Source: Rhizobiales bacterium 65-79 (lineage in GTDB: Bacteria > Pseudomonadota > Alphaproteobacteria > Rhizobiales > Rhizobiaceae). Taken from it: a DNA stretch of 24,000 nucleotides. The notes beneath the pieces were generated by a model. That model was not told the DNA's origin. It searched no databases and saw only the letters and a list, made by a program, of their open reading frames with translations. The stretch lies in NCBI GenBank assembly GCA_001896885.1, contig MKRJ01000011.1:80265-104264 (forward strand), written 5' to 3'. The position numbers were made by a program, and so were the translations under genes. This document shows positions 6,667 to 21,094 of the stretch, one piece after another. Numbering within the stretch: position 1 is the first letter of the stretch; each line of letters starts with the position of its first letter.

Positions 6667-7862
6667 CGATGGCCGCGGCAAGACGGGCCGACTACGACGT
6701 GGTGGTCGCCGGCGGCGGGCCGGGCGGCGCGACCGCGGCCACCGATCTCGCACTGGCGGGTCGACGCGTCCTGCTGCTCGATCGCGAGGGGCGCACCAAG
6801 CCGTGCGGCGGCGCCATACCGACCAAGCTGATCGAGGAGTTCGACATTCCCGCCTCGCTGCTTCAGGCCCGCATCCGCTCAGCCCGCATCTTCGCGCCTT
6901 CGGGCACCAGCGTCGACATGAAGATCGATGATGGCTTCGTCGGCATGGTCGGCCGTGATGTCTTCGATCCCTGGCTGCGCGAAAGAGCGGCGTCGAGCGG
7001 CGCGACCGTGCTCGCCGCGACCTTCGAAAGCGCGTGCGCCGCCGACGACAGCCTGCTCGACGTGCGCTTCGTGCGCAATGACGGCATTGCGGAAACGGTC
7101 GCTGCCAGAATGATCATCGGCGCGGACGGCGCCAATTCGACGGTAAGGCGCGTGATGTTCGGCAGGGACCAGCGCCCGCCTTATGTCTTCGCCTATCATG
7201 AAATCGTCAGGTCCCCGGCCGGCCGTCGGCAAAGCTTCGACGCGCGGCGCTGCGATGTCTATTATCAGGGGCGGATATCGCCGGATTTCTACGGCTGGGT
7301 GTTTCCGCACGGCGACACCACGAGCGTCGGCGTCGGCAGCGCGATCAAGGGGTTCGACCTCAGGGCCGCCACCCGCGCCCTGCGCGAGGCCGCCGGCCTC
7401 GGCGCGCAGCAGACGCTGCGCGAGGAGGGCGCGCCGCTGCCGCTGAAGCCGCTGCGGCGCTGGGACAACGGCCGCGACACCGTGCTGGTCGGAGATGCGG
7501 CGGGGGTCGTGGCGCCGTCCTCGGGAGAGGGCATCTATTTTGCCATGGATTGCGGCCGTCTCGCCGCGCAGGCGGCCGGCGAATTCCTCGCGACGGGCAA
7601 CCCCAGGGCGCTGGTGGGCGTGCGCAGGCGCTTCATGCGCAAACACGGCCGCGTCTTCCTGATCCTGGGCTTCATGCAGGGCTTCTGGTACCGCAACGAC
7701 AAGCGGCGCGAACGCTTCGTCATGATCTGCGAAGACCGCGACGTGCAGAAGCTGGTATGGGAATCCTACCTCCACAAGCGGCTGGCGCGCACCGACCCGC
7801 TCGCGCATGTGCGGGTGTTCCTGAAGGATTTGCGGCACCTGCTGCGGCTGGCATTCCAGTAG
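6663..7862 (+). CDS. bchP: Geranylgeranyl-bacteriochlorophyll reductase (BchP), 399 aa
   Basis: N-terminal FAD fold DYDVVVAGGGPGGATAATDLALAGRRVLLLDREGRTKPCGGAIP. ATGA overlap with the upstream MFS gene. Canonical bchG-MFS-bchP order. Confidence 0.95.
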   Translation: MTMAAARRADYDVVVAGGGPGGATAATDLALAGRRVLLLDREGRTKPCGGAIPTKLIEEFDIPASLLQARIRSARIFAPSGTSVDMKIDDGFVGMVGRDVFDPWLRERAASSGATVLAATFESACAADDSLLDVRFVRNDGIAETVAARMIIGADGANSTVRRVMFGRDQRPPYVFAYHEIVRSPAGRRQSFDARRCDVYYQGRISPDFYGWVFPHGDTTSVGVGSAIKGFDLRAATRALREAAGLGAQQTLREEGAPLPLKPLRRWDNGRDTVLVGDAAGVVAPSSGEGIYFAMDCGRLAAQAAGEFLATGNPRALVGVRRRFMRKHGRVFLILGFMQGFWYRNDKRRERFVMICEDRDVQKLVWESYLHKRLARTDPLAHVRVFLKDLRHLLRLAFQ

Positions 7863-7875
7863 CCGGAGCGAAGCG

Positions 7876-8145
7876 ATGATCGACACAATCATATCCAGCG
7901 GCGCCATCGCCTGGATAGCACTCGGCGCGCTTCTGCTCGAATTGATGATCGTGCTGGGCCTGGCGCGCAGCCGGGCGACGCGGATGTCCTTCATTGCCAA
8001 CGGCCTGTCCGGCGCCTGCCTGATCATGGCGTTCCGCGCTGCGCTGATCGGCGCCGGCACGTTGCCGATCGCCGTGTGGCTCGGCCTCGGTCTCGCCGCT
8101 CATCTGGCCGATGTGGCGATGCGCCTGCGCCAGTCGGCCCGATGA
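7876..8145 (+). CDS. Small hydrophobic protein, 89 aa, about 3 predicted TM helices, unknown function
   Basis: GGAG lies 7 nt upstream of ATG 7876, which is 13 nt after the bchP stop on the same strand. The sequence is strongly hydrophobic with GC-rich third positions. I recognise no family. Confidence 0.5.
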   Translation: MIDTIISSGAIAWIALGALLLELMIVLGLARSRATRMSFIANGLSGACLIMAFRAALIGAGTLPIAVWLGLGLAAHLADVAMRLRQSAR

Positions 8146-8183
8146 GCCTCCATCACGCGGCGGCGCGTGCCTCGTCGGCCGAC
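8133..8183. terminator. Extended GC-rich stem-loop spanning the convergent stops of the 89-aa ORF and rpe; possible bidirectional termination or processing element without a U-tract
   Basis: Lower stem: 8133-8139 pairs with 8177-8183 (7 bp), C8140 is bulged, and 8141-8146 pairs with 8071-8176 region 8171-8176 (6 bp with one G-U). Upper stem: 8154-8159 pairs with 8164-8169 (CACGCG/CGCGTG) around a 4-nt loop. The stops at 8143-8145 (+) and 8153-8155 (-) both lie inside the structure. Confidence 0.3.
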
Positions 8184-8836
8184 CGGCGGATGGCGTCGAT
8201 GTTGACACGGTAGATGTCTTTCGTGCCGCCTGTGAAAACCGCCGACCCGGCGACCAGGACGTTCGCCCCCGCCGCGGTCAGCAGGGGCGCCGTCTTCGGC
8301 GTCACGCCGCCGTCGATCTCGATATCGATCGCACGGCCGCCCACGAGCGCCTTGACCCGCCGGACCTTTTCGACGACGGCCGGAATGAATGCCTGGCCGC
8401 CGAAGCCGGGATTGACCGTCATCAGCAGCACAAGGTCGAGCCTGTCGAGGACATATTCGATCACGGTCTCCGGCGTGGCGGGGTTGAGCGACACGCCGGC
8501 TTTCTTGCCCAGCGCCCTGATCGTCTGAAGCGAGCGGTCGAGATGCGGCCCGGCCTCGGCGTGCACGGTGATGGTGTCGCAGCCGGCGTCGGCGAACGCG
8601 GCCAGGTAGGCGTCGGCGGGCGCGATCATCAAATGGCAGTCGAAGACCTTGTCGGTGCGGCTGCGTATGGCCTTGATGACCGGCGGCCCGAAGGTGATGT
8701 TGGGGACGAAATGCCCGTCCATGACGTCGAGATGGATCCAGTCGGCGCCGGCCGCCGCAACCGCCTCGACCTCGTCGCCCAGCCGTGAAAAATCGGCCGA
8801 AAGCACCGAAGGCGCGATGATCGTGCTATAGGTCAT
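8153..8836 (-). CDS. rpe: Ribulose-phosphate 3-epimerase (Rpe/CbbE), about 227 aa
   Basis: Contains [57 protein letters not shown] and IEIDGGV. ATG 8836 is preceded by GGGAGG. The track start at 8878 is an unsupported extension. Confidence 0.94.
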
Positions 8837-8884
8837 TGCCAGGCCTCCCGGTCCATTTCGCAAGTCGCGCTCCGGCAAGGGACG

Positions 8885-9829
8885 TTACACGGCCGTCGTT
8901 CCGCTGGCCGGTTCCCCGTCGAGCCTTCCTTCGACGAACACCCGGCTGCCGCGTATATCGGCCGCCTCGATCGTGACGAGGTCGGTTCTCGTAAGCTTCT
9001 CGCTGCGCTCGGCGAAAAGCCGGTTGGCCTGCCGCAGACGCGCACGGTCCAGGGCGTTGCGGATGGAGCGCGCGTTGGAGAAATGCGGCAGCCGCATGCG
9101 AAGCGTGATGTATTCCTCGAGCGTGGCGGCGGCCTCCTCGCTCAGGCGATAATTCTGGTCGGCGAGCATGATCTCGGCGATCGACTTGAGCTCGGCGGGA
9201 CTGTAGTCCGGGAAATCCAGATGGTGGGCGATGCGCGAGCGCATGCCTGGGTTGCTGTCGAAGAACTTGTCCATCTTGTTCTTGTAGCCGGCCAGGATGA
9301 CCACCAGGTCATCGCGGTTGTTCTCCATGTACTGCAGCAGGATTTCGATGGCTTCCTGGCCGTAGTCGCGCTCGTTCTCTGGCTTGTAGAGATAGTAGGC
9401 CTCGTCGATGAAGAGCACGCCGCCCATGGCGCGCTTGATCACCTCCCTGGTCTTGGGCGCCGTGTGGCCGACATATTGGCCCACGAGGTCGTCGCGCGTC
9501 ACCGAAACCAGGTGGCCTTCGCGGATATAGCCCAGCCGATGCAGGATCTCGGCCATCCGCAGCGCCACCGTCGTCTTGCCGGTGCCGGGATTGCCGGTGA
9601 AGTTCATATGCAGCGTCGGCGTTCCCGACGAAATGCCGAACTTGCGCCGCAGCCTGTCGACCAGAAGCAGTGCCGCGATTTCGCGGATGCGGGTCTTGAT
9701 CGGCCTGAGGCCTATCAGTTCGCGGTCCAGCTTCTCGATGACCTCGTCGATGTTCGAAGCCTCGAACTCGGCTTGCAGATTGACCAGTTCCCCATCGTCC
9801 AGAACCATGGTGTTCGACATCTCGAGCAT
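8885..9829 (-). CDS. cbbX: Red-type RuBisCO activase CbbX (AAA+), 314 aa
   Basis: Walker [12 protein letters not shown], Walker [12 protein letters not shown], and the CbbX-typical blocks [24 protein letters not shown] and [28 protein letters not shown]. It lies directly downstream of cbbLS. Confidence 0.95.
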
Positions 9830-9857: not shown

Positions 9858-10292
9858 CTAGCGCCGTTCGCCTTCCGGTTTGTCGGTGGCGTAGGGAACG
9901 ATGGAATAGCCCTGGCTGCGGCCGCTGCGTTCCTGCCGCAGCAGCCGGAAGCCGGGCTCGCTCGGCGGCCGGTTGACGATGAAGGACATGCGCGGCGCCT
10001 CCCAGCCCTTGGTCGAATCGAACGCGGTCACCCGGATGTACATGTCGGGGTAGGTCTTGCGGCAGGAATTCACCTCCAGGAGGATTCCGGCCGGGTCCCT
10101 GAGATCGAACATCGGATTGCCGAACATCTCCCAATAGGTGTTCCTGGGGTGTGGGTCGTCGGTATATTCGACGCTCACCGCCCAATTGTTTTTCAACGCA
10201 TATTTGATCTGTGCCGATATCTGCGTGTCGGTAAGGTCGGGCAGGAAGGAAAACTGCCCCTGGGTGACCCTGTTGCCGGGATTGCTCATCAT
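9858..10292 (-). CDS. cbbS: RuBisCO small subunit, form IC/ID type, 144 aa
   Basis: Contains [51 protein letters not shown] and the C-terminal extension typical of red-type small subunits. ATG 10292 has GGAGGA 7 nt upstream. The longer track ORF (to 10922) overlaps cbbL out of frame. Confidence 0.95.
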
Positions 10293-10309: not shown

Positions 10310-12705
<2,396 letters not shown>

Positions 12706-12709
12706 CGCC

Positions 12710-13738
12710 TCAGGCCCTGAACAAGCCGCGATTGCCGAACAGCGGAGCCCTGTCGGCGATGGTGCTCGGCTCGGTGTGGTAGCGTGTGATGCGCTCGATT
12801 TCCGGCAGCGATCCGCAGATGAACGGCGTACGCTGCCGCAACGTCTCCGGCACGAGATCGAGCACCGGGCCGGCCGCGTCGGACGCGCCGCCGCCGGCCT
12901 GCTCCACGAGCAGGGCGATCGGATTGGCCTGAAAAACCAGCTCGATATGGCCCTGCGCGCAACCGGGCCGGTTGTCGGCCGGCTGCAGGTAGACGCCCCC
13001 ATGCATCAGGATGCGGTATATATGAGCGACCAGCGATGCGCCCCAGCGCATGTCGAAGTCACGCTTGCGCGGTCCGTCGGCGCCGCTCAGGCAGTCGTCG
13101 ATGTAGAGCCGAACGGCCTCCCGCCAGTGCCGGTAGTTCGAGGCGTTGATGGCGTATTCGGTTGCCTCCGCGGGGATCATGCAGCTCTCCTGCGCCTGGA
13201 CGAAAACCCCGAGCGGCGCCGAGAATATGAAAACATGGGTACCCTTGCCCAGCGTCAGCACAAGCCCCAGTTGGGGACCGTAGACGACAAAACCCGCTGC
13301 AAGCTGTCTCCTGCCAGGCTGCCGGAACGTTTCCCTTTCATCCGCCTGCAAAGCCGGCAGTACCGAGAAGATGGTTCCGACCGCCGCGTTGATATCGATG
13401 TTGGAAAAGCCGTCCATGGCCTGGATCGCGACCGCCAGCGGCGCATTGCGGTCAAGGGTCGCTGGAGCGTCGCCCTGCTCGGCGGCATAGAAGGCGACCG
13501 GCGCGTTGGCCATCGCCTCCAGGAACGTCGCGTTCGCCCGCGCTTCGAGAGCGCGCCTGGGATCGTCACCCCCGCTCGACAGCGGATCGCCGCCACCTGG
13601 GCCGACGGTGCCCATCATGGCGCGCAGCTTCAGCGCGGCGGAGGCCAGCGCCCGCACCGTTTGCGCAACGGCGGGCCGCAACCCGGTCTGGGACACCATG
13701 TAGGAATCCAGAAACGCATCGAGCGTCGAGGCGATCAT
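12710..13738 (-). CDS. cbbF: Class I fructose-1,6-bisphosphatase homologue (CbbF position) with substituted catalytic carboxylates; activity doubtful
   Basis: FBPase blocks MDGFSNIDINAAVGTIFSV, AAGFVVYGP, YAINASNY, GGVYLQP and NPIALLVEQAGGGASD are present. It is the first gene of the operon and divergent from cbbR. GGGAGAAG lies upstream of ATG 13738. See the finding for the Gln substitutions. Confidence 0.85.
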   Translation of the reverse strand: MIASTLDAFLDSYMVSQTGLRPAVAQTVRALASAALKLRAMMGTVGPGGGDPLSSGGDDPRRALEARANATFLEAMANAPVAFYAAEQGDAPATLDRNAPLAVAIQAMDGFSNIDINAAVGTIFSVLPALQADERETFRQPGRRQLAAGFVVYGPQLGLVLTLGKGTHVFIFSAPLGVFVQAQESCMIPAEATEYAINASNYRHWREAVRLYIDDCLSGADGPRKRDFDMRWGASLVAHIYRILMHGGVYLQPADNRPGCAQGHIELVFQANPIALLVEQAGGGASDAAGPVLDLVPETLRQRTPFICGSLPEIERITRYHTEPSTIADRAPLFGNRGLFRA

Positions 13739-13857
13739 CCTGCTTCTCCCGGACGCGCCGACATCCTCGACGTTTCCCGAAAACAGAATGACAGGGGAAC
13801 CGGAGTTTAGTAAAATTTAATTTCCTTACATTCGAGATAAGAAAAACCTACTGAGAA
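13739..13857. promoter_or_regulatory. cbbR/cbbF divergent control region with candidate LysR (CbbR) boxes
   Basis: 119-bp spacer with a roughly 50-bp AT-rich core (13806-13850) in a GC-rich genome. TTA-N7-TTA, which is a T-N11-A box, lies at 13807-13819. The dyad GTAA-N12-TTAC lies at 13810-13829. Confidence 0.5.
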
Positions 13858-14796
13858 ATGCGAAACATCTCCCTGAGGCAGTTGCGGGCCATGTCGGCGA
13901 TCCAGCGTCACCGCAAGATCGTTTCCGCAGCGGCCGAACTTGGCCTCACGCCGCCCGCCGTCACCCTGCAGCTGCAGCAGCTCGAGCATGAAACCGGCCT
14001 GGTCCTGTTCGACCGGACGCCCGACGGCATGCGCGCGACGGCGGCCGGGCTAGCGGTGCTCGACGCCGCGCAGGCCGTCGAGGAGCGGCTTCGCGTGCTT
14101 TCCGACGAGATCGATGCCGTCAAGGGGGTGAAGCAGGGCAGCCTGCGTCTCGGCGTCGTCTCGACCGCGAAATATTTTGCGCCGCGGCTGATGGCGGCCT
14201 TCATGGCGGATTTTCCGGGCATCGAGATGCGACTGAAGGTCGGCAACCGCGCCCAAACGATCGACAGCCTGAAAAACCACGATCTCGACATCGCCCTGAT
14301 GGGGCGTCCGCCCGACGACGTTCCCGTCCGAGCCGTCGTCATCGGCGATCACCCGCTGGTGATCATCGCCGCGCCTGATCATCCGCTGGTGAGGCAGCGC
14401 GACATCAGCAAGGAGATTATCGCGGGTGAATCCGTGCTCCTGCGCGAGCCCGGCTCGGGAACGCGCACATCCATGGAGATTTTCATGCGGGGCGTGACAG
14501 GGTGGATGGACAGCCCCGCCATCGAGATGGATTCGAACGAGACAATCAAGCAATCGGTGATGGCCGGTCTCGGGGTGGCGTTCATTTCCGGCCATACGGT
14601 ATCCTACGAATTGGAGGCCGGGCGGCTGGCCTTGCTCGACGTCGTGGGGATGCCGCTTCGGCGGCAATGGTTCGCCGTCGCGCGCAGCGATCGCGTCATG
14701 ACCCCGGCAATGGCCGCGTTCCACGATTTCCTGGCGAGATCGGGCACCCGCTATCTGCCGGCCTTCGGCCGATTGTATCCGCAGCAGGCATCCTGA
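13858..14796 (+). CDS. cbbR: LysR-type transcriptional activator CbbR, 312 aa
   Basis: N-terminal wHTH ISLRQLRAMSAIQRHRKIVSAAAELGLTPPAVTLQLQQLE. CbbR-typical C-terminal blocks REPGSGTR and EMDSNETIKQSVMAGLGVAFISGHTV. It is divergent from the cbb operon. Confidence 0.9.
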   Translation: MRNISLRQLRAMSAIQRHRKIVSAAAELGLTPPAVTLQLQQLEHETGLVLFDRTPDGMRATAAGLAVLDAAQAVEERLRVLSDEIDAVKGVKQGSLRLGVVSTAKYFAPRLMAAFMADFPGIEMRLKVGNRAQTIDSLKNHDLDIALMGRPPDDVPVRAVVIGDHPLVIIAAPDHPLVRQRDISKEIIAGESVLLREPGSGTRTSMEIFMRGVTGWMDSPAIEMDSNETIKQSVMAGLGVAFISGHTVSYELEAGRLALLDVVGMPLRRQWFAVARSDRVMTPAMAAFHDFLARSGTRYLPAFGRLYPQQAS

Positions 14797-15814: not shown

Positions 15815-17109
15815 ATGACGTCGACACAAAGTCTGGGGAGGCGCGTCGGACGGCGCACCGTCCTCAAGGGCATGGCGGCGGCCGGCGCTGCCGGCGCGGC
15901 AAGCTTCAGCGGATTGGCGCCGGCCTTCTCCGCGCCGAAGACCATCAAGATCGGGCTGGTGATGCCGCAGACCGGGCCGCTGGCGTTCTTCTGCGAGCAT
16001 ATCCCCTTCGTGCTCGAACAGGTGAAGAAGGCGACCGGCGGGAACCTCGACATCGGCGGCACGAAGCATCCGTTCGAGATCGTGGTGCGCGACAGCCAGT
16101 CCAATCCCAACCGCGCGGCGGAGGTGACGCAGGACCTGATCCTCAACCAGGGGGTCAATCTCATCGCCACCTTCGCCACGCCGGAAACGGTCAACCCGGT
16201 CTCGGACCAGTGCGAGCTGAACGGCGTCCCCTGCGTGTCCAACGACGCGCCGCTGGAGCCTTATTTCTTCGGCCGTCATGGCGACCCGAAGAAAGGGTTC
16301 GAATGGACCTATCATTTCTTCTTCAGCGGCGACGAACTGGTCAACTGCCTGATCCCGTTCTGGAACCGGCTCTCCACCAACAAGAAGATCGGCGGGCTGT
16401 GGCCGAACGACGGCGACGGCATCGCCCAGTCGAAGGGTTTCCCGCCGGTCATGCAGAAGGCCGGCTACACGGTCACCGACCCCGGGCGCTTCGACATGCC
16501 GGCCAGTAACTACAACGCGCAGATCGGCGCCTTCAAGGCGGCCGGCTGCGACATCGTCTCGGGCGTGGTGCCGCCGCCGGAAATGACCACCTTCTGGAAT
16601 GGCTGCGCCCAGCAGGGCTACAAGCCGAAGGCCGTCTATATGGGAAGGCGCTGGAATTCCCGGCGGGTATCGCGCCGCTCGGCGCGCGCGCGGAGGGCCT
16701 GACGACGGAGGTGTGGTGGTCGCCCTTCCATCCTTATTCCTCGTCGATGAACGGGCAGACCTCGAAGGAACTCGCCGATTCCTACGAGGCGGAAAGCGGA
16801 CGCCAGTGGTCGCAGCCGCTCGGGTTCAGGCATTCGCTCTTCGAGGTCGCGCTCGATACGCTGAAGCGGGCCCAGGACCTCGACAAGCCCGAATCCATTC
16901 GCGACGCGCTGAAGACGACCAATCTGAAGACGATCGTCGGGCCTGTCGACTTCGCCACCGGACCGCTTCCGAACTGCTCGCTGACGCCGCTCGTCATGGC
17001 GCAATGGCGCAAGGGGAAGAAGTATCCCTTCGACATCGTCATCGTCGACAATTCGAAGTTCCCGGAAATCCCTGTCGGCGGAGAACCGGAGCCGATACCC
17101 TACAGTTGA
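15815..17109 (+). pseudogene. HAAT-family (LivK-like, Peripla_BP_6 type) periplasmic substrate-binding protein with a Tat signal, split by a 1-nt frameshift near 16637-16645
   Basis: Track ORFs 15815..16702 and 16711..17109 are the N- and C-halves of one roughly 431-aa binding protein. The frame changes from 2 to 1. Reading ...GYKPKAVY then switching frame gives GKALEFPAGIAPLGARAEGLTTEVWWSPFHPY, which is continuous. The span is 1295 nt, one short of a multiple of 3. GGGAGGA precedes ATG 15815, and a twin-arginine motif GRRTVLKG is present. Confidence 0.8.
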
Positions 17110-17149: not shown

Positions 17150-17192
17150 TTGACCATTGACGAGGGGATGCCGGGGACGTGTCCTGTTGAGA

Positions 17193-17909
17193 ATGCTGGA
17201 ACTGATCGGCCTGTCCCTGCACTTCGGCGCGCTCAAGGTGCTCGATGGGCTCGACCTTACCGTCGAGCGCGGCGAGGTGCTCGGTGTCCTCGGGCCGAAC
17301 GGGGCGGGCAAGACGACGCTTTTCAATGTCATCGTCGGCGTGCATGCGCCGAACGCCGGGCGCGTCCTTTTCGAGGGGCGCGACCTTGGCGCCATGCGCA
17401 TGTGGCATCGCTGCCGGGTTGGTATCGGCCGCACCTTCCAGGTGCCGCGGCCCTTCTCGGACATGACGGTCTTCGACAACGTTCTGACCTCGGCGGTGCA
17501 TGGCGGCGGACTGTCGCTCGCGGAGGGACGCCGGCAGGCGGAGGAGGCGCTCGACAGCGCGGGACTGACGCACCGCATCGGCCAGCGGGCGGGCAACCTG
17601 CCGCTGCTCGACCTGAAGCGGCTGGAGCTTGCCAAGGCGATCGCCTGCCGCCCGCGCCTGCTCCTGCTCGACGAGATCGCCGGCGGCCTGACCGATCGTG
17701 AATGCGAGGTGCTGCTCGGCATATTGCGATCGCTGCATGGGCAAGGCATGACCATCGTCTGGATCGAGCACGTCATGCATGCGCTGCGCGGCGTCGCCAG
17801 CCGGCTTGCCGTGCTCCATGGCGGCAGGATCATCTCCACCGGTTCGCCCGACGATGTCCTCGCCGATCCGCGCGTCCACGAAATCTATCTCGGGGACGCG
17901 GCGGCATGA
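17193..17909 (+). CDS. ABC transporter ATP-binding protein, LivG-like, about 238 aa
   Basis: Walker A GPNGAGKTTLF, Walker B LLLLDEIAGGL and H-loop WIEHVMH. The signature region is atypical (LPLLDLKRLELAKA). The start is taken as ATG 17193 (MLELIGLSLHFG...); the track TTG at 17157 is less likely. Confidence 0.88.
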   Translation: MLELIGLSLHFGALKVLDGLDLTVERGEVLGVLGPNGAGKTTLFNVIVGVHAPNAGRVLFEGRDLGAMRMWHRCRVGIGRTFQVPRPFSDMTVFDNVLTSAVHGGGLSLAEGRRQAEEALDSAGLTHRIGQRAGNLPLLDLKRLELAKAIACRPRLLLLDEIAGGLTDRECEVLLGILRSLHGQGMTIVWIEHVMHALRGVASRLAVLHGGRIISTGSPDDVLADPRVHEIYLGDAAA

Positions 17910-18613
17910 ACGGGACGCCGCTCCTCTCGGTCGAGAGCCTCTCCGTTTTCTACGGCCATTTTCGCGCTTTGGACGCGGTCGAGCTTTCCGTCGGCGCCGG
18001 AGAGATCGTTTCCATCATCGGCGCGAACGGAGCCGGAAAGTCCTCGCTGATGAAGGCCATCGTCGGCCAGGCCGACCGCATCGAGGGCCGCATCTGCCTG
18101 GAGGGCGCGGACCTCGCGGATCGAAGCACGGCCGAGATCGCAAAGGCCGGGGTCGCGCTCGTGCCGGAGGGGAGGCGGCTTTTCTCGTCGCTTACGGTCG
18201 AGGAGAATTTGCGCATCGGCCAGGAGGTCGGACGCGAAGGGGATATCGGTTTCGACGACATCTATCGCATGTTCCCGGTGCTGCGCGAAAGACGACGCCA
18301 GTTGGCGCGGCAGCTTTCCGGCGGCCAGCAGCAGATGGTGGCGGTCGGCCGGGCACTGCTCGCCAATCCGAAGCTTCTCCTGTGCGACGAGATCAGTCTC
18401 GGACTTGCCCCGGTCGTCATCGGCGATCTCTACGAGATGCTGCCGAAAATCCGCGAGCGCGGCATCGGCATCCTCGTGGTCGAGCAGGACATCAGCCGTT
18501 CGCTCGCCGTCGCCGACCGCTTCTACTGCCTGCTCGAAGGCCGCGTGAACTTGAGCGGCCGGCCGGCGGAAACCAGTCGGGAAATCGTCGCCCGGCACTA
18601 TTTCGGAGGCTAG
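17906..18613 (+). CDS. ABC transporter ATP-binding protein, LivF-like, 235 aa
   Basis: Walker A GANGAGKSSLM, canonical signature LSGGQQQMVAVGRAL and Walker B LLLCDEISLGL. ATGA overlap with the upstream ATPase gene. Confidence 0.9.
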   Translation: MNGTPLLSVESLSVFYGHFRALDAVELSVGAGEIVSIIGANGAGKSSLMKAIVGQADRIEGRICLEGADLADRSTAEIAKAGVALVPEGRRLFSSLTVEENLRIGQEVGREGDIGFDDIYRMFPVLRERRRQLARQLSGGQQQMVAVGRALLANPKLLLCDEISLGLAPVVIGDLYEMLPKIRERGIGILVVEQDISRSLAVADRFYCLLEGRVNLSGRPAETSREIVARHYFGG

Positions 18614-18618
18614 GACCG

Positions 18619-19485
18619 GTGCTCGGAGGTTGGCTCAACCAGATCGTGCAGGGCGTACTCCTCGGCGGGCTCTACGCCACCTTCGCCATGGGGCTGTCGC
18701 TCTCGGTCGGCATCATGCGCTTCGTCAACATCGCCCATGGCGACCTGATCGTGCTCGTCTCCTTCCTCATCCTGACGCTGACGACGACGCTCGGGCTTTC
18801 GCCGCTCGCCGCGGTGCTGGTGACGTTGCCGATCACCTTTTTCGGCGGCTATCTCCTGCAGCGGCTCCTGCTGCAGCGGGTGCTCGGCAAGGGCGTGCTG
18901 CCGATCATCCTCGTCACGTTCGGCCTTTCGATCATCGTCCAGAACGGACTGCTCGGAACCTACGGCGCGGATACGCGCAAGGTCGCGGGCGGCTCCTTCG
19001 AAACGGCGACGCTGATGCTCGGCGGCGGCGTCAATGTCGGGGTCCTGCCGCTCACCATCTTCCTGTCGGCGATCGCCATGGTGGTCGTGCTCGACTTCGT
19101 GCTGTACCGGACACGGCTAGGCGCCCGCATTCGCGCCGTTTCGGACGATGTCGCGGCCGCCGACCTTATCGGGCTGCCGTCGGCACGTATCTATGCCACG
19201 GCGATGGGGATCGTCGGCGTCACCATCGCGATCTCAGCGGGCTTCATGTCGATCTGGACGAATTTCGACCCGACCAGCGGGCCGAGCCGTCTGCTGGTCG
19301 CCTTCGAGGCCGTGGTGCTCGGCGGGCTCGGCAGCCTGTGGGGCACGCTTGCCGGCGGCATCATCATCGGCATCGCCCAGGTGGTCGGCGCGCAGGTCGA
19401 CGCGGCATGGCAGTTGCTCGCCGGGCATCTCGTCTTCCTGGCCATCTTCATGCTCAGGCCCGAGGGCCTGTTCCCGAAATATTGA
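18619..19485 (+). CDS. Branched-chain-type ABC permease, LivH-like, about 288 aa
   Basis: Polytopic, with an N-terminus LNQIVQGVLLGGLYATFAMGLSLSVG typical of LivH-family permeases. GTG 18619 has GGAGG 9 nt upstream. The long track ORF from 17779 is an out-of-frame upstream extension. Confidence 0.9.
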   Translation: MLGGWLNQIVQGVLLGGLYATFAMGLSLSVGIMRFVNIAHGDLIVLVSFLILTLTTTLGLSPLAAVLVTLPITFFGGYLLQRLLLQRVLGKGVLPIILVTFGLSIIVQNGLLGTYGADTRKVAGGSFETATLMLGGGVNVGVLPLTIFLSAIAMVVVLDFVLYRTRLGARIRAVSDDVAAADLIGLPSARIYATAMGIVGVTIAISAGFMSIWTNFDPTSGPSRLLVAFEAVVLGGLGSLWGTLAGGIIIGIAQVVGAQVDAAWQLLAGHLVFLAIFMLRPEGLFPKY

Positions 19486-19496
19486 GGGCGGGCAGG

Positions 19497-20543
19497 ATGA
19501 AGGCTTCAACGGGAGCGTTTGCGATATGGTGCGGCCGCCTCGCCCTGTTCGCGGGGGCCGCGGTCCTCGTCGCCGCGCCGTGGCTCTTTCGCGTCACCGA
19601 CATCGCGCTTCTTACCGAATTCCTGTCGCTCCTGACGATCGCCGTCATGTGGAACCTCGTGGCCGGTTATGCCGATATCGTGTCGGTCGGACAGCATGCC
19701 TTCGTCGGCATCGGCGCCTACGCTTTCTTCGGCTTCGCCGTCATCGCCCGCATCGATCCGTTCTTGGCCATTCCGCTGGCGGCACTGGTGGCGCTTCTCT
19801 TCGCCATCCCGGTGATGGCGATCATCTTCCGCCTGCGTGCGGCCTATCTCGCGGTCGGAAGCTGGGTAGTCGCCGAGACGCTGATGCTGGCGGCCGGGAA
19901 GCTTTCCGCCTTCGGCGGCGGATCGGGGATCAGCATGCCGGTGTCGGTCGTGCGCATCTTCGGCGCGCATCCGGCGGAGCGCTATGCGACGATCTACTGG
20001 ATCGCCTTCGCCGTGGCGGCGCTTTCCCTGGTCTCGACATGGCTCCTCATGCGCTCGCGCATCGGGCTCGGCCTCACCGCCATCCGCGACGACGAGCAGG
20101 GCGCCGGCGTCGTCGGCGTCAATCTCTCCGGGCTGCGCATCCTCTGCTTCCTTTGGGCGGCGCCGTTCCTCGGTCTCGCCGGCGCCGTGATCACCCTGCA
20201 GAAACTCCGGGTCGCGCCGCCGGCCTCCTTCTCCATCATCGACTGGACGGTCTATGTGATCTTCATCGTGGTGATCGGCGGCATCGGCAGCTTCGAGGGA
20301 CCGATCATCGGCACCGTCATCTTCTTCCTGATCCGCTCCTATCTGAGCGAGATCGGCGTCTGGCATTTCATCATTCTCGGCGTGCTGTCGATCGCCGTGG
20401 TGCTGGTGGAGCCCCGCGGCCTGTGGGGGCTGGTCCGGCGCTTCCTGCCGGAGGACGTGATCCCGATCACGCGGCGCCCGCCGCTGCCCGGCCGCCCTAC
20501 GGAGCAGGCAAGCCGGCCCGCCGAGAGCATTGCGCACGAGTAA
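19497..20543 (+). CDS. Branched-chain-type ABC permease, LivM-like, 348 aa
   Basis: Polytopic, with blocks WNLVAGYADIVSVGQHAFVGIGAY, GLGLTAIRDDEQGAGVVGVN and VVIGGIGSFEGPIIG. ATG 19497 lies 11 nt after the LivH-like stop. Confidence 0.9.
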   Translation: MKASTGAFAIWCGRLALFAGAAVLVAAPWLFRVTDIALLTEFLSLLTIAVMWNLVAGYADIVSVGQHAFVGIGAYAFFGFAVIARIDPFLAIPLAALVALLFAIPVMAIIFRLRAAYLAVGSWVVAETLMLAAGKLSAFGGGSGISMPVSVVRIFGAHPAERYATIYWIAFAVAALSLVSTWLLMRSRIGLGLTAIRDDEQGAGVVGVNLSGLRILCFLWAAPFLGLAGAVITLQKLRVAPPASFSIIDWTVYVIFIVVIGGIGSFEGPIIGTVIFFLIRSYLSEIGVWHFIILGVLSIAVVLVEPRGLWGLVRRFLPEDVIPITRRPPLPGRPTEQASRPAESIAHE

Positions 20544-20560
20544 ACATCGAGGAGACGAAA

Positions 20561-21094
20561 ATGCCCGAGAAAGCGACGAGCGAATTCTGGCGCGAGCTGA
20601 AGCCGATCACCACGGTGTTCCAGCCGAACGCGCTCCCGGAAATCTATACCGCGCATGCGGCGACCGAGGACGAGCGCTATTACGTGCCCTTCACCGAGAC
20701 GGTGTCCTCGCGGCCGCTCTGGATTTCGCCCAGCCAGAACAAATGGTGCGATGTGTTGATGGCGAAGAAGGCCGGGCTGGTGAACCGCCACTATCACCCG
20801 CACCAGGTCTTCGCCTACACGATCTCCGGCAAGTGGGGCTATCTCGAGCATGACTGGACCGCGACCGCGGGCGACTTCGTCTACGAGACGCCGGGCGAGG
20901 GGCATACGCTGGTCGCCTACGAGCACGAGGAGCCGATGAAGACGATCTTCGTCGTCGAGGGGCCGCTGATCTGGCTCGACGACAAGGGCAAGGCGGACGG
21001 CTATTTCGATGTTCACATGTATATCGCCATGTGCAAGGCGCATTACGACAAGGTCGGCCTCGGCGCTGGGATGATCGACGCGATCCTGCGGTAG
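20561..21094 (+). CDS. Cupin-fold non-heme iron dioxygenase of the 2,4'-dihydroxyacetophenone dioxygenase (Dad) family, 177 aa
   Basis: Cupin motif 1 NRHYHPHQVFAYTISG and motif 2 GDFVYETPGEGHTL. His77, His79 and His115 are spaced like the Dad 3-His site (His76/78/114, from memory), and the length is the same as Dad. GAGGAG RBS; the start is 17 nt after the permease stop. Confidence 0.75.
   Translation: MPEKATSEFWRELKPITTVFQPNALPEIYTAHAATEDERYYVPFTETVSSRPLWISPSQNKWCDVLMAKKAGLVNRHYHPHQVFAYTISGKWGYLEHDWTATAGDFVYETPGEGHTLVAYEHEEPMKTIFVVEGPLIWLDDKGKADGYFDVHMYIAMCKAHYDKVGLGAGMIDAILR

Follow-up and report, generated by a model that had tools for sequence, protein, structure and literature searches.

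A class I fructose-bisphosphatase homologue with a degenerate active site and a conserved C-terminal tail in the cbb operon of a Rhizobiales bacterium

Genomic context of the cbbF-like gene

We describe here a cbbF-like gene whose product keeps the fold of a class I fructose-1,6-bisphosphatase (FBPase), with much of its catalytic centre replaced. The gene lies in a stretch of 24,000 nucleotides (nt), hereafter the window, from Rhizobiales bacterium 65-79 (assembly GCA_001896885.1, contig MKRJ01000011.1, positions 80,265 to 104,264 of the forward strand), which has a G+C content of 65.5%. It is an open reading frame (ORF) without internal stops and stands at the head of a cbb operon on the minus strand, divergent from the regulatory gene cbbR and immediately upstream of prk, the gene for phosphoribulokinase (PRK), a context that is that of CbbF (Table 1). 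The operon directly adjoins the photosynthesis genes of the window, which carries part of a photosynthesis gene cluster, namely a nitrogenase-like BchN/B-type ORF, bchF, ppsR, bchG, a PucC/LhaA-type gene and bchP. The initial annotation, made from the sequence alone, had proposed a ribosome-binding site and tight coupling to prk, and both can be seen: a Shine-Dalgarno-like GGGAGAAG stands at 13750..13743, and the prk ATG at 12705 follows the cbbF stop codon (TGA) after a gap of just 4 nt. The genes that complete the operon after prk, cbbL, cbbS, cbbX and rpe, are intact and strongly constrained; the initial annotation had described the motifs of RuBisCO, PRK, CbbX and Rpe as intact. In a search of a plasmid collection, cbbLSX-rpe alone matched Sinorhizobium meliloti megaplasmids (~79%), and the window itself was not placed on any known plasmid.

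Table 1. Features of the cbb region in the window, with the median pairwise dN/dS of the operon genes and cbbR (28 pairs from eight genomes)
Feature	Coordinates	Strand	Evidence	Median dN/dS
cbbF-like ORF of 342 aa, degenerate active site in a class I FBPase fold	12710..13738	-	Pfam, NCBIfam, HMMER, AlphaFold2, Foldseek	0.18 (range 0.09-0.28)
prk, phosphoribulokinase, 289 aa	11836..12705	-	profile matches	0.09
cbbL	10310..11791	-	intact, strongly constrained	0.05
cbbS	9858..10292	-	intact, strongly constrained	0.05
cbbX	8885..9829	-	intact, strongly constrained	0.095
rpe	8153..8878	-	intact, strongly constrained	
cbbR, LysR-type regulator, divergent from cbbF	13858..14796	+	profile matches	0.085
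Divergent cbbR-cbbF control region, A+T-rich; LysR-type sites would be expected	13739..13857	.	sequence reading	
Shine-Dalgarno-like sequence upstream of cbbF ATG (13738..13736)	13743..13750	-	direct sequence reading	
CAG codon, Gln88 = Glu98 equivalent (catalytic water/base network)	13475..13477	-	alignments; role PMC5639204	
CAG codon for Gln106, corresponding to Asp118 (binds metals 1 and 2)	13421..13423	-	alignments; role PMC3785478	
CAG codon for Gln270, corresponding to Glu280 (binds metal 1); 16/17 clade members have Gln	12929..12931	-	alignments	
Phe111, corresponding to Ser123 (contact to the 1-phosphate); 17/17 clade members have a hydrophobic residue, 104/104 canonical relatives have Ser	13406..13408	-	MAFFT	
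Segment with Gln252 (= Tyr264) and Glu266 (= Arg276), both changes clade-specific	12941..12985	-	alignments	
C-terminal tail of residues 323-342 (…EPSTIADRAPLFGNRGLFRA), where the clade is most conserved	12713..12772	-	alignments, entropy, codon variation	

Fold and active-site residues

Homology to class I FBPases extends over the whole length of the sequence and over the fold, in agreement with the initial description of the ORF as a full-length homologue. The window protein matches Pfam PF00316 and PF18913 at 77.8 and 124.7 bits and scores 381 bits against the NCBIfam model NF006780 ('class 1 fructose-bisphosphatase'), whose cutoff is 358. Its AlphaFold2 model (predicted local distance difference test, pLDDT, 81.9; predicted template modelling score 0.85) has class I FBPases as top Foldseek matches, with TM-scores of 0.80-0.84 to solved FBPases (about 0.83). 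The residue register was derived from four independent alignments, i.e. by HMMER against the solved enzymes of Escherichia coli (2gq1) and Stenotrophomonas (7k74), by MAFFT with human FBP1 (its sequence checked against PDB 4mjo), by BLASTP against the canonical CbbF of S. meliloti and by MAFFT with 120 homologues, and all four gave the same result. The register that had been set by eye thus stands, and these alignments place Gln at all three of the positions at which Gln had been reported.

In published FBPase structures metal 1 is held by Asp118, Asp121 and Glu280, metal 2 by Glu97, Asp118 and the Leu120 carbonyl, and metal 3 by Glu97 and Asp68, while Asp74 and Glu98 form the network that activates the water (PMC3785478, PMC5639204). 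In the window protein the carboxylates Glu97, Asp118, Asp121 and Glu280 of the three metal sites read Glu (E87), Gln, Asp (D109) and Gln, Asp68 is kept as D59, and the Asp74/Glu98 pair has become E65 and Q88. The 1-phosphate contacts Ser123, Ser124 and Arg276 are F111, S112 and E266. In the 6-phosphate/sugar pocket N198, R231, W232 and H264 are as in active relatives and Tyr264 has been changed to Gln; N64→S, S96→A and Y279→F complete the list of changes. The Gln residues equivalent to Glu98 and Asp118 had been given with exact codon coordinates; that equivalent to Glu280 was correct as a residue but its codon was placed one base off, at 12930..12928, the CAG being at 12931..12929. Among the altered substrate contacts listed in the same annotation, Y264→Q and R276→E hold up and are clade-specific, whereas K274→H and Y244→W are nothing special, since canonical relatives have Arg or His at 274 and Trp at 244 in 104/104 sequences; these two are features of the lineage and no sign of degeneration. 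The changes S123→F, D74→E, N64→S, S96→A and Y279→F were absent from that list.

A clade of degenerate CbbF proteins

Among the 120 best database homologues, the 16 best matches (46 member sequences) show the degenerate pattern and form with the window protein a clade of 17 protein clusters (clustered at 90% identity) that are 64-90% identical and all lack the canonical residues. The remaining 104 homologues, at no more than 61% identity, are canonical at essentially every diagnostic position: N64, D74, S96, E97, E98, D118, S123, Y264, R276, Y279 and E280 are each invariant in 103-104 of the 104, and the same residues are replaced throughout the clade, although the window protein itself keeps E97. 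The replacements are Ala, Gly, Thr or Glu at 97, seven different residues for E98, Glu, Gly or Lys at 74, His, Gln, Glu or Tyr at 118, Phe, Met, Val or Ile at 123, Asp, Glu or Gln at 264, Gly, Glu or Ser at 276 (17/17), His, Cys, Phe, Leu or Arg at 279, and Gln (16/17) or His at 280, with Asp121 maintained; most members have Ala at 97, His at 118, Gly at 276 and a hydrophobic residue at 123. Certain replacements are conserved within a main sub-clade (H118 13/17, H279 12/17, R64 14/17, R70 17/17, Q280 16/17), and the sub-clade of the window protein has Gln, Phe/Leu/His, Ser/Thr/Gly, Ala and Gln at 118, 279, 64, 96 and 264. New acidic residues are found in the clade at pig positions 67, 96, 241 and 264.

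When the twelve diagnostic columns were masked and a neighbour-joining tree was computed, the degenerate sequences, 17 in all, came out as a monophyletic group on a long stem, sister to canonical cbbF of the Phyllobacteriaceae type. Among the carriers are the cultured isolate Mesorhizobium quangtriensis VNQ89, 'Mesorhizobium loti' GCA_000517145.1 and several metagenome-assembled genomes (MAGs); the assemblies are independent, those of the other 16 clusters coming from NCBI, ENA, JGI and Logan. All seven clade members whose loci were looked up share the layout of the window, with cbbR divergent from cbbF-prk-cbbL-cbbS-cbbX-(rpe), followed by bchP-pucC-bchG-ppsR. The nearest canonical relatives (P0017, P0019, P0020 and P0035) likewise head operons under the control of cbbR, and P0020 adjoins bchP as well. 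Since this context is shared, canonical relatives included, the clade represents the cbbF orthologue and no stray housekeeping fbp paralogue. Every full-length member has an intact ORF of about equal length, and length is kept in 15 of 16 relatives down to 64% identity.

Several further observations were made on these proteins and loci. C186, H239 and C308, as well as R61, Y195, D229 and G233, are invariant in 17/17 clade members and differ from the canonical residues at these positions (R/I/L, D/E, F, Q, F, N and I/V, respectively); the two new invariant cysteines and the histidine could mark a redox or metal site. P0019 (L010 8001-9047), from a cbbFPLSX-rpe operon adjoining a bacteriophytochrome gene, has a canonical active site except for E98→A, E280→K and Y279→F, and may be at an early or separate stage of degeneration. 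In one MAG (L003 15840-20784) the photosynthesis genes adjoining the operon are broken up, with a bchP of 266 aa, a PucC-type gene split into three parts and a ppsR split into two, and the cbb genes are intact, the degenerate cbbF included; the cause is either indel errors of long reads or a decay of phototrophy in which the cbb operon was retained. Another clade member (P0002) is listed at NCBI as 'class 1 fructose-bisphosphatase [Mesorhizobium loti]', i.e. as an enzyme.

Selection on cbbF

Pairwise dN/dS was computed by the Nei-Gojobori method (NG86) for 28 pairs from eight genomes, with neighbouring genes as internal controls (Table 1). The cbbF protein is under purifying selection; for the closest pair, the window and L001, the ratio is 0.09, and cbbF changes at about double the rate of prk and cbbX. 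As dS is around 1, near saturation, and the bias at such values is towards higher ratios, the conclusion of purifying selection is a conservative one.

The distribution of this constraint along the protein is unusual. With the same mean pairwise identity (0.74) in both sets, mean entropy in the clade is 1.19 bits at the 12 former active-site positions and 0.65 elsewhere, compared with 0.06 bits at these sites and 0.87 elsewhere in the canonical relatives. Within the trio of the window protein and its two nearest relatives, differences fall on 6 of the 12 sites vs 54 of the 330 others (odds ratio 5.1, Fisher p=0.009). The catalytic centre has shifted from being the most constrained region to less than average constraint while the protein as a whole has been kept. 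A relaxed active site within a constrained protein would exclude a decaying pseudogene, or an ORF maintained for coupling only, and the hypervariability of these positions speaks against a new catalytic constellation that has become fixed throughout the clade. The proposal in the initial annotation of a selected pseudoenzyme, as opposed to decay, is supported by these data, i.e. by substitutions across the clade, intact ORFs, dN/dS of 0.09-0.28 and a variable active site.

The C-terminal tail

The tail EPSTIADRAPLFGNRGLFRA extends about 20 residues past the C-terminus of E. coli and mammalian FBPases and contains a motif, PLFxxRGLFR, which we define here as a feature of CbbF and which reads APLFGNRGLFRA in the window protein (residues 331-342). 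In the clade 16 of the 18 tail positions are invariant, with an entropy (0.30 bits) that is the lowest of any segment; codons vary synonymously at 11 of these 16 columns, which places the constraint on the protein. An alignment of 30 degenerate homologues so divergent that their mean identity is 42% has just 15 invariant columns, of which four are tail residues (L333, F334, R337 and L339). Furthermore, at metagenome loci the tail is present in 49/49 FBPase genes adjacent to prk (found among L021-L100; 36 by a strict regular expression and 13 as obvious variants) and in 0/25 without prk, the prk-linked consensus being [P/A/Q]LFxxR[G/S]LF(R). It is also found in the canonical CbbF proteins of S. 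meliloti (L101 14542-15591) and Afipia carboxidovorans (L104 4812-5849).

The cbbF-prk gap has a median of 16 nt over 53 pairs and is 4-8 nt in the clade. That the tail sequence is conserved merely as the ribosome-binding site of prk could be ruled out, as the motif persists at gaps of up to 115 nt and its codons vary synonymously. In the AlphaFold2 monomer the tail has a pLDDT below 50, as would be expected of a motif that folds on a partner. No description of the motif was found in the open-access literature searched.

Other degenerate lineages

As a background, 80 metagenomic FBPase loci were collected with the generic pattern EQAGGxA.., which yields mostly canonical genes and is a poor census of degenerate forms. 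In 79 of the 80 genes the twelve positions read NDSEEDDSYRYE, occasional differences at N64 and S123 aside, as they do in 103-104 of the 104 close canonical relatives, and this uniformity validates the alignment procedure. The sole degenerate locus, L045 (5490-6527), has cbbR divergent from an FBPase-like gene that is followed by prk and a transketolase gene.

A profile search of 1.84 billion cluster representatives (50% identity) revealed a bimodal distribution of deviations, with about 49 full-length representatives deviating at 0-1 of the 12 sites and about 66 at four or more. The degenerate ones (representatives P0122-P0270) are scattered over many small groups, in metagenomic clusters of 1-6 members, so that degenerate CbbF-like proteins are rare in abundance and very diverse, as expected of fast-evolving lineages. 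The tail was kept by 66 of 67 full-length degenerate representatives vs 23 of 50 canonical ones, a count biased by the search profile, which itself contained the tail. In P0173 (L102/L103 9001-10134) 9 of the 12 sites are changed; its locus comprises cbbR divergent from cbbF-prk-tkt-cbbL-cbbS, then hyp and NiFe-hydrogenase genes. The nearest relatives of P0173, at 41-50% identity, some of which bear the names Actinomycetes or Propionicimonas, have in almost every case a fully canonical set of residues, and the lineage is apparently actinobacterial. Compared with a canonical sister, its N-terminal domain is 33% identical, its C-terminal domain 63% and its tail identical at 12 of 13 positions. 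Loss of catalytic residues has thus occurred independently more than once, always in the operon copy, and at least two lineages besides the window clade have kept the tail.

Neighbouring genes

The rpe-bchP interval of the window (7862..8153) is only about 290 bp long. Genes for a peroxiredoxin/redoxin, DUF4142 and/or DUF2189 proteins and a small ORF, found between rpe and bchP at L001 (15697-17410), L004, L005 and L006, are missing from it. Downstream of cbbR (15815..16702, 17157..20543 and 19148..21094) lie a branched-chain-amino-acid-type ABC transporter set, in which the Peripla_BP_6 ORF looks short (295 aa), and a ChrR-type cupin domain that forms the terminal part of a long mechanical ORF, the predicted gene boundaries being provisional.

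Discussion

Canonical CbbF, as encoded in the cbbFPTALSX-rpe operon of an S. meliloti megaplasmid and on pHCG3 of A. carboxidovorans, occupies the same first-gene position as the cbbF gene described here, divergent from cbbR and upstream of prk, has the same fold and the same PLFxxRGLFR tail, and in the case of S. meliloti is 53% identical to the window protein. It holds all twelve active-site residues (in ASEE, DPLDGSS, YP and GRLRLVYE), whereas the window clade does not. The CbbF of Cupriavidus necator is an FBPase/sedoheptulose-1,7-bisphosphatase (SBPase) of the cbb operon according to Yoo & Bowien (1995), as that work is cited in PMC11397080. Housekeeping class I FBPases (E. coli 2gq1/2owz; pig and human FBP1, 1eyi/4mjo) share the fold (TM-score ~0.82-0.84) and the DG.SNID, VGTIFS and EQAGG blocks with the window protein, but have the full catalytic set, no C-terminal tail and no linkage to prk. 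The AMP-site residues are entirely unconserved in the alphaproteobacterial CbbF group.

The window protein is thus homologous to an enzyme and lacks residues that catalysis requires, and purifying selection (28 pairs; 17 clusters) sets it apart from a pseudogene. The explanation that we favour, with moderate confidence, is that it is a pseudo-FBPase with a non-catalytic role mediated by the tail, possibly through binding to PRK, and that the enzymatic activity is supplied elsewhere. Judging from the residues, it probably hydrolyses neither fructose 1,6-bisphosphate (FBP) nor sedoheptulose 1,7-bisphosphate (SBP) at a useful rate. In this scenario the CbbF orthologue would have retained the class I FBPase fold and lost the three-metal centre and the 1-phosphate contacts. 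A second, non-catalytic function, probably present in canonical CbbF too, would be carried by the tail and the C-terminal domain; the patterns of conservation point to the latter (strongly conserved) and the former (more so) as the preserved parts. The roles suggested in the initial annotation were those of a sugar-bisphosphate binder, a regulator or a scaffold. The likeliest form of the second function would be binding to a partner encoded in the same operon. PRK is the best candidate, since its gene is the invariable and often translationally coupled neighbour, and CbbR, the other constant gene of these loci, would be the alternative. Where another enzyme such as the class II FBPase GlpX provides FBPase/SBPase activity, catalysis could decay while the second function keeps the gene, and glpX has been reported in related Rhizobiales (PMC5896264, PMC12628762).

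Some of our observations weigh against this explanation. The back-up enzyme is presumed, and no other FBPase was found within the 10-kb flanks on either side in eight loci; a scan of the genome contigs with clade-specific peptide patterns returned only the clade loci and three distant FBPases. Residual activity is possible, as E97, D121, D68 and a Glu at D74 are kept and Gln can ligate Mg2+ weakly. The conserved replacements of the main sub-clade (H118, H279, D96, D/E264, R64 and R70) could mean that the site has been rebuilt. The near-saturation of dS, the bias in the count of tail-bearing representatives and the low model confidence of the tail have to be added to these.

Another possibility is that the protein is still a working FBPase/SBPase, in which metal would be bound by E87, D109, D59 and E65 together with Gln carbonyls or relocated acids, perhaps at the price of an altered metal preference or a lower turnover. 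The four acidic residues that remain in the window protein, the new acidic residues of the clade and a score above the NF006780 equivalog cutoff would fit, and a review of pseudoenzymes cautions that residues of catalytic sites are able to migrate (PMC10211241). However, ligands to all three metal sites have been lost in most clade members (Ala97, His118, Gly276 and a hydrophobic residue at 123), the active-site positions are hypervariable and have not been re-fixed, and the Pfam score of the N-terminal domain falls from 117-128 to 74-85 bits. Single E98Q, D118 or E280Q mutations of mammalian FBPase cut kcat by orders of magnitude. On balance, a working enzyme is unlikely. A neo-functionalised protein with a rebuilt pocket, acting either as a metal-independent or His-based enzyme on another phosphosugar or as a non-hydrolysing sensor of fructose 6-phosphate, sedoheptulose 7-phosphate, ribulose 1,5-bisphosphate (RuBP) or FBP that reports to PRK or CbbR, would account for the mostly kept 6-phosphate pocket (N212, R243, W244, R/H274), the conserved main-sub-clade replacements (H118, H279, R64, R70, Q280) and the clade-specific invariant C186, C308 and H239; a change of site charge from strongly negative to neutral or positive might also allow anions to bind without metals. 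Yet the window sub-clade lacks H118, H279, R64, D96 and D/E264, so that a pocket chemistry common to the clade is not evident, and Y264→D/E/Q sets a negative or neutral group at the 6-phosphate site. We regard a rebuilt pocket as unlikely.

If cbbF were a decaying relic, its frame spared solely because translation through it is required for prk translation or operon expression, the 4-nt gap to prk and the twofold faster evolution relative to prk and cbbX would be explained, but constraint at the amino-acid level (dN/dS 0.09-0.28), large invariant blocks with synonymous variation and the preservation of length in 15/16 relatives down to 64% identity would not, and we consider this account very improbable. 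An origin of the three CAG codons in errors of sequencing or assembly, which no observation favours, is hardly conceivable, given related substitutions in 16 other clusters (NCBI, ENA, JGI and Logan), including one from the isolate M. quangtriensis VNQ89.

A second function in a protein of this fold would not be without precedent. E. coli SuhB has a role in rRNA antitermination that is independent of its inositol monophosphatase (IMPase) activity, and mammalian FBP1 and the cytosolic FBPase of Arabidopsis (FINS1) have catalysis-independent signalling roles. These proteins of the FBPase/IMPase fold keep their catalytic residues, whereas in the window protein catalysis has apparently been discarded. 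In the plant pseudoenzymes PDX1.2 and beta-amylase 9 a degenerate homologue has likewise been retained, presumably to bind or regulate another protein. These arose by duplication and act on an active paralogue, while here an orthologue would have degenerated in place and the suspected partner, PRK, is unrelated to it in sequence. In oxygenic phototrophs PRK and GAPDH are sequestered by the small protein CP12, which controls PRK non-enzymatically via a short conserved C-terminal motif and would be a conceptual analogue only; there is no relation in sequence or structure. To our knowledge, no protein regulator of bacterial class I PRK has been described. A degenerate cbbF was not found described in the open-access literature either, although absence there is no proof of novelty.

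Our results have implications for the annotation of cbbF, which everywhere is named as the FBPase/SBPase of the bacterial Calvin cycle. With 381 bits against a cutoff of 358, NF006780 admits the window protein, and public annotation thus gives it an enzymatic function for which its residues offer no support. If the whole clade is catalytically dead, metabolic reconstructions of phototrophic Mesorhizobium-like bacteria would be wrong at the FBPase/SBPase step, and the regeneration phase of the cycle must rely on another phosphatase. M. quangtriensis VNQ89 provides a cultured carrier. The repeated retention of an apparently dead CbbF with a tail that is limited to prk-linked FBPases points to a non-catalytic function of CbbF. 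RuBP, the product of PRK, is the co-inducer of CbbR (PMC4806589), so that any protein modulating PRK would control the flux through the cycle and the expression of the operon alike. More tentatively, CbbF could be generally bifunctional, with PLFxxRGLFR docking onto an operon partner, likeliest class I PRK, and with this second function mattering so much that motif and scaffold stayed when the enzymatic activity was lost repeatedly in several phyla. Should this be the case, CbbF would belong to a complex of proteins, or a regulatory switch, that has so far gone unrecognised in the bacterial Calvin cycle.

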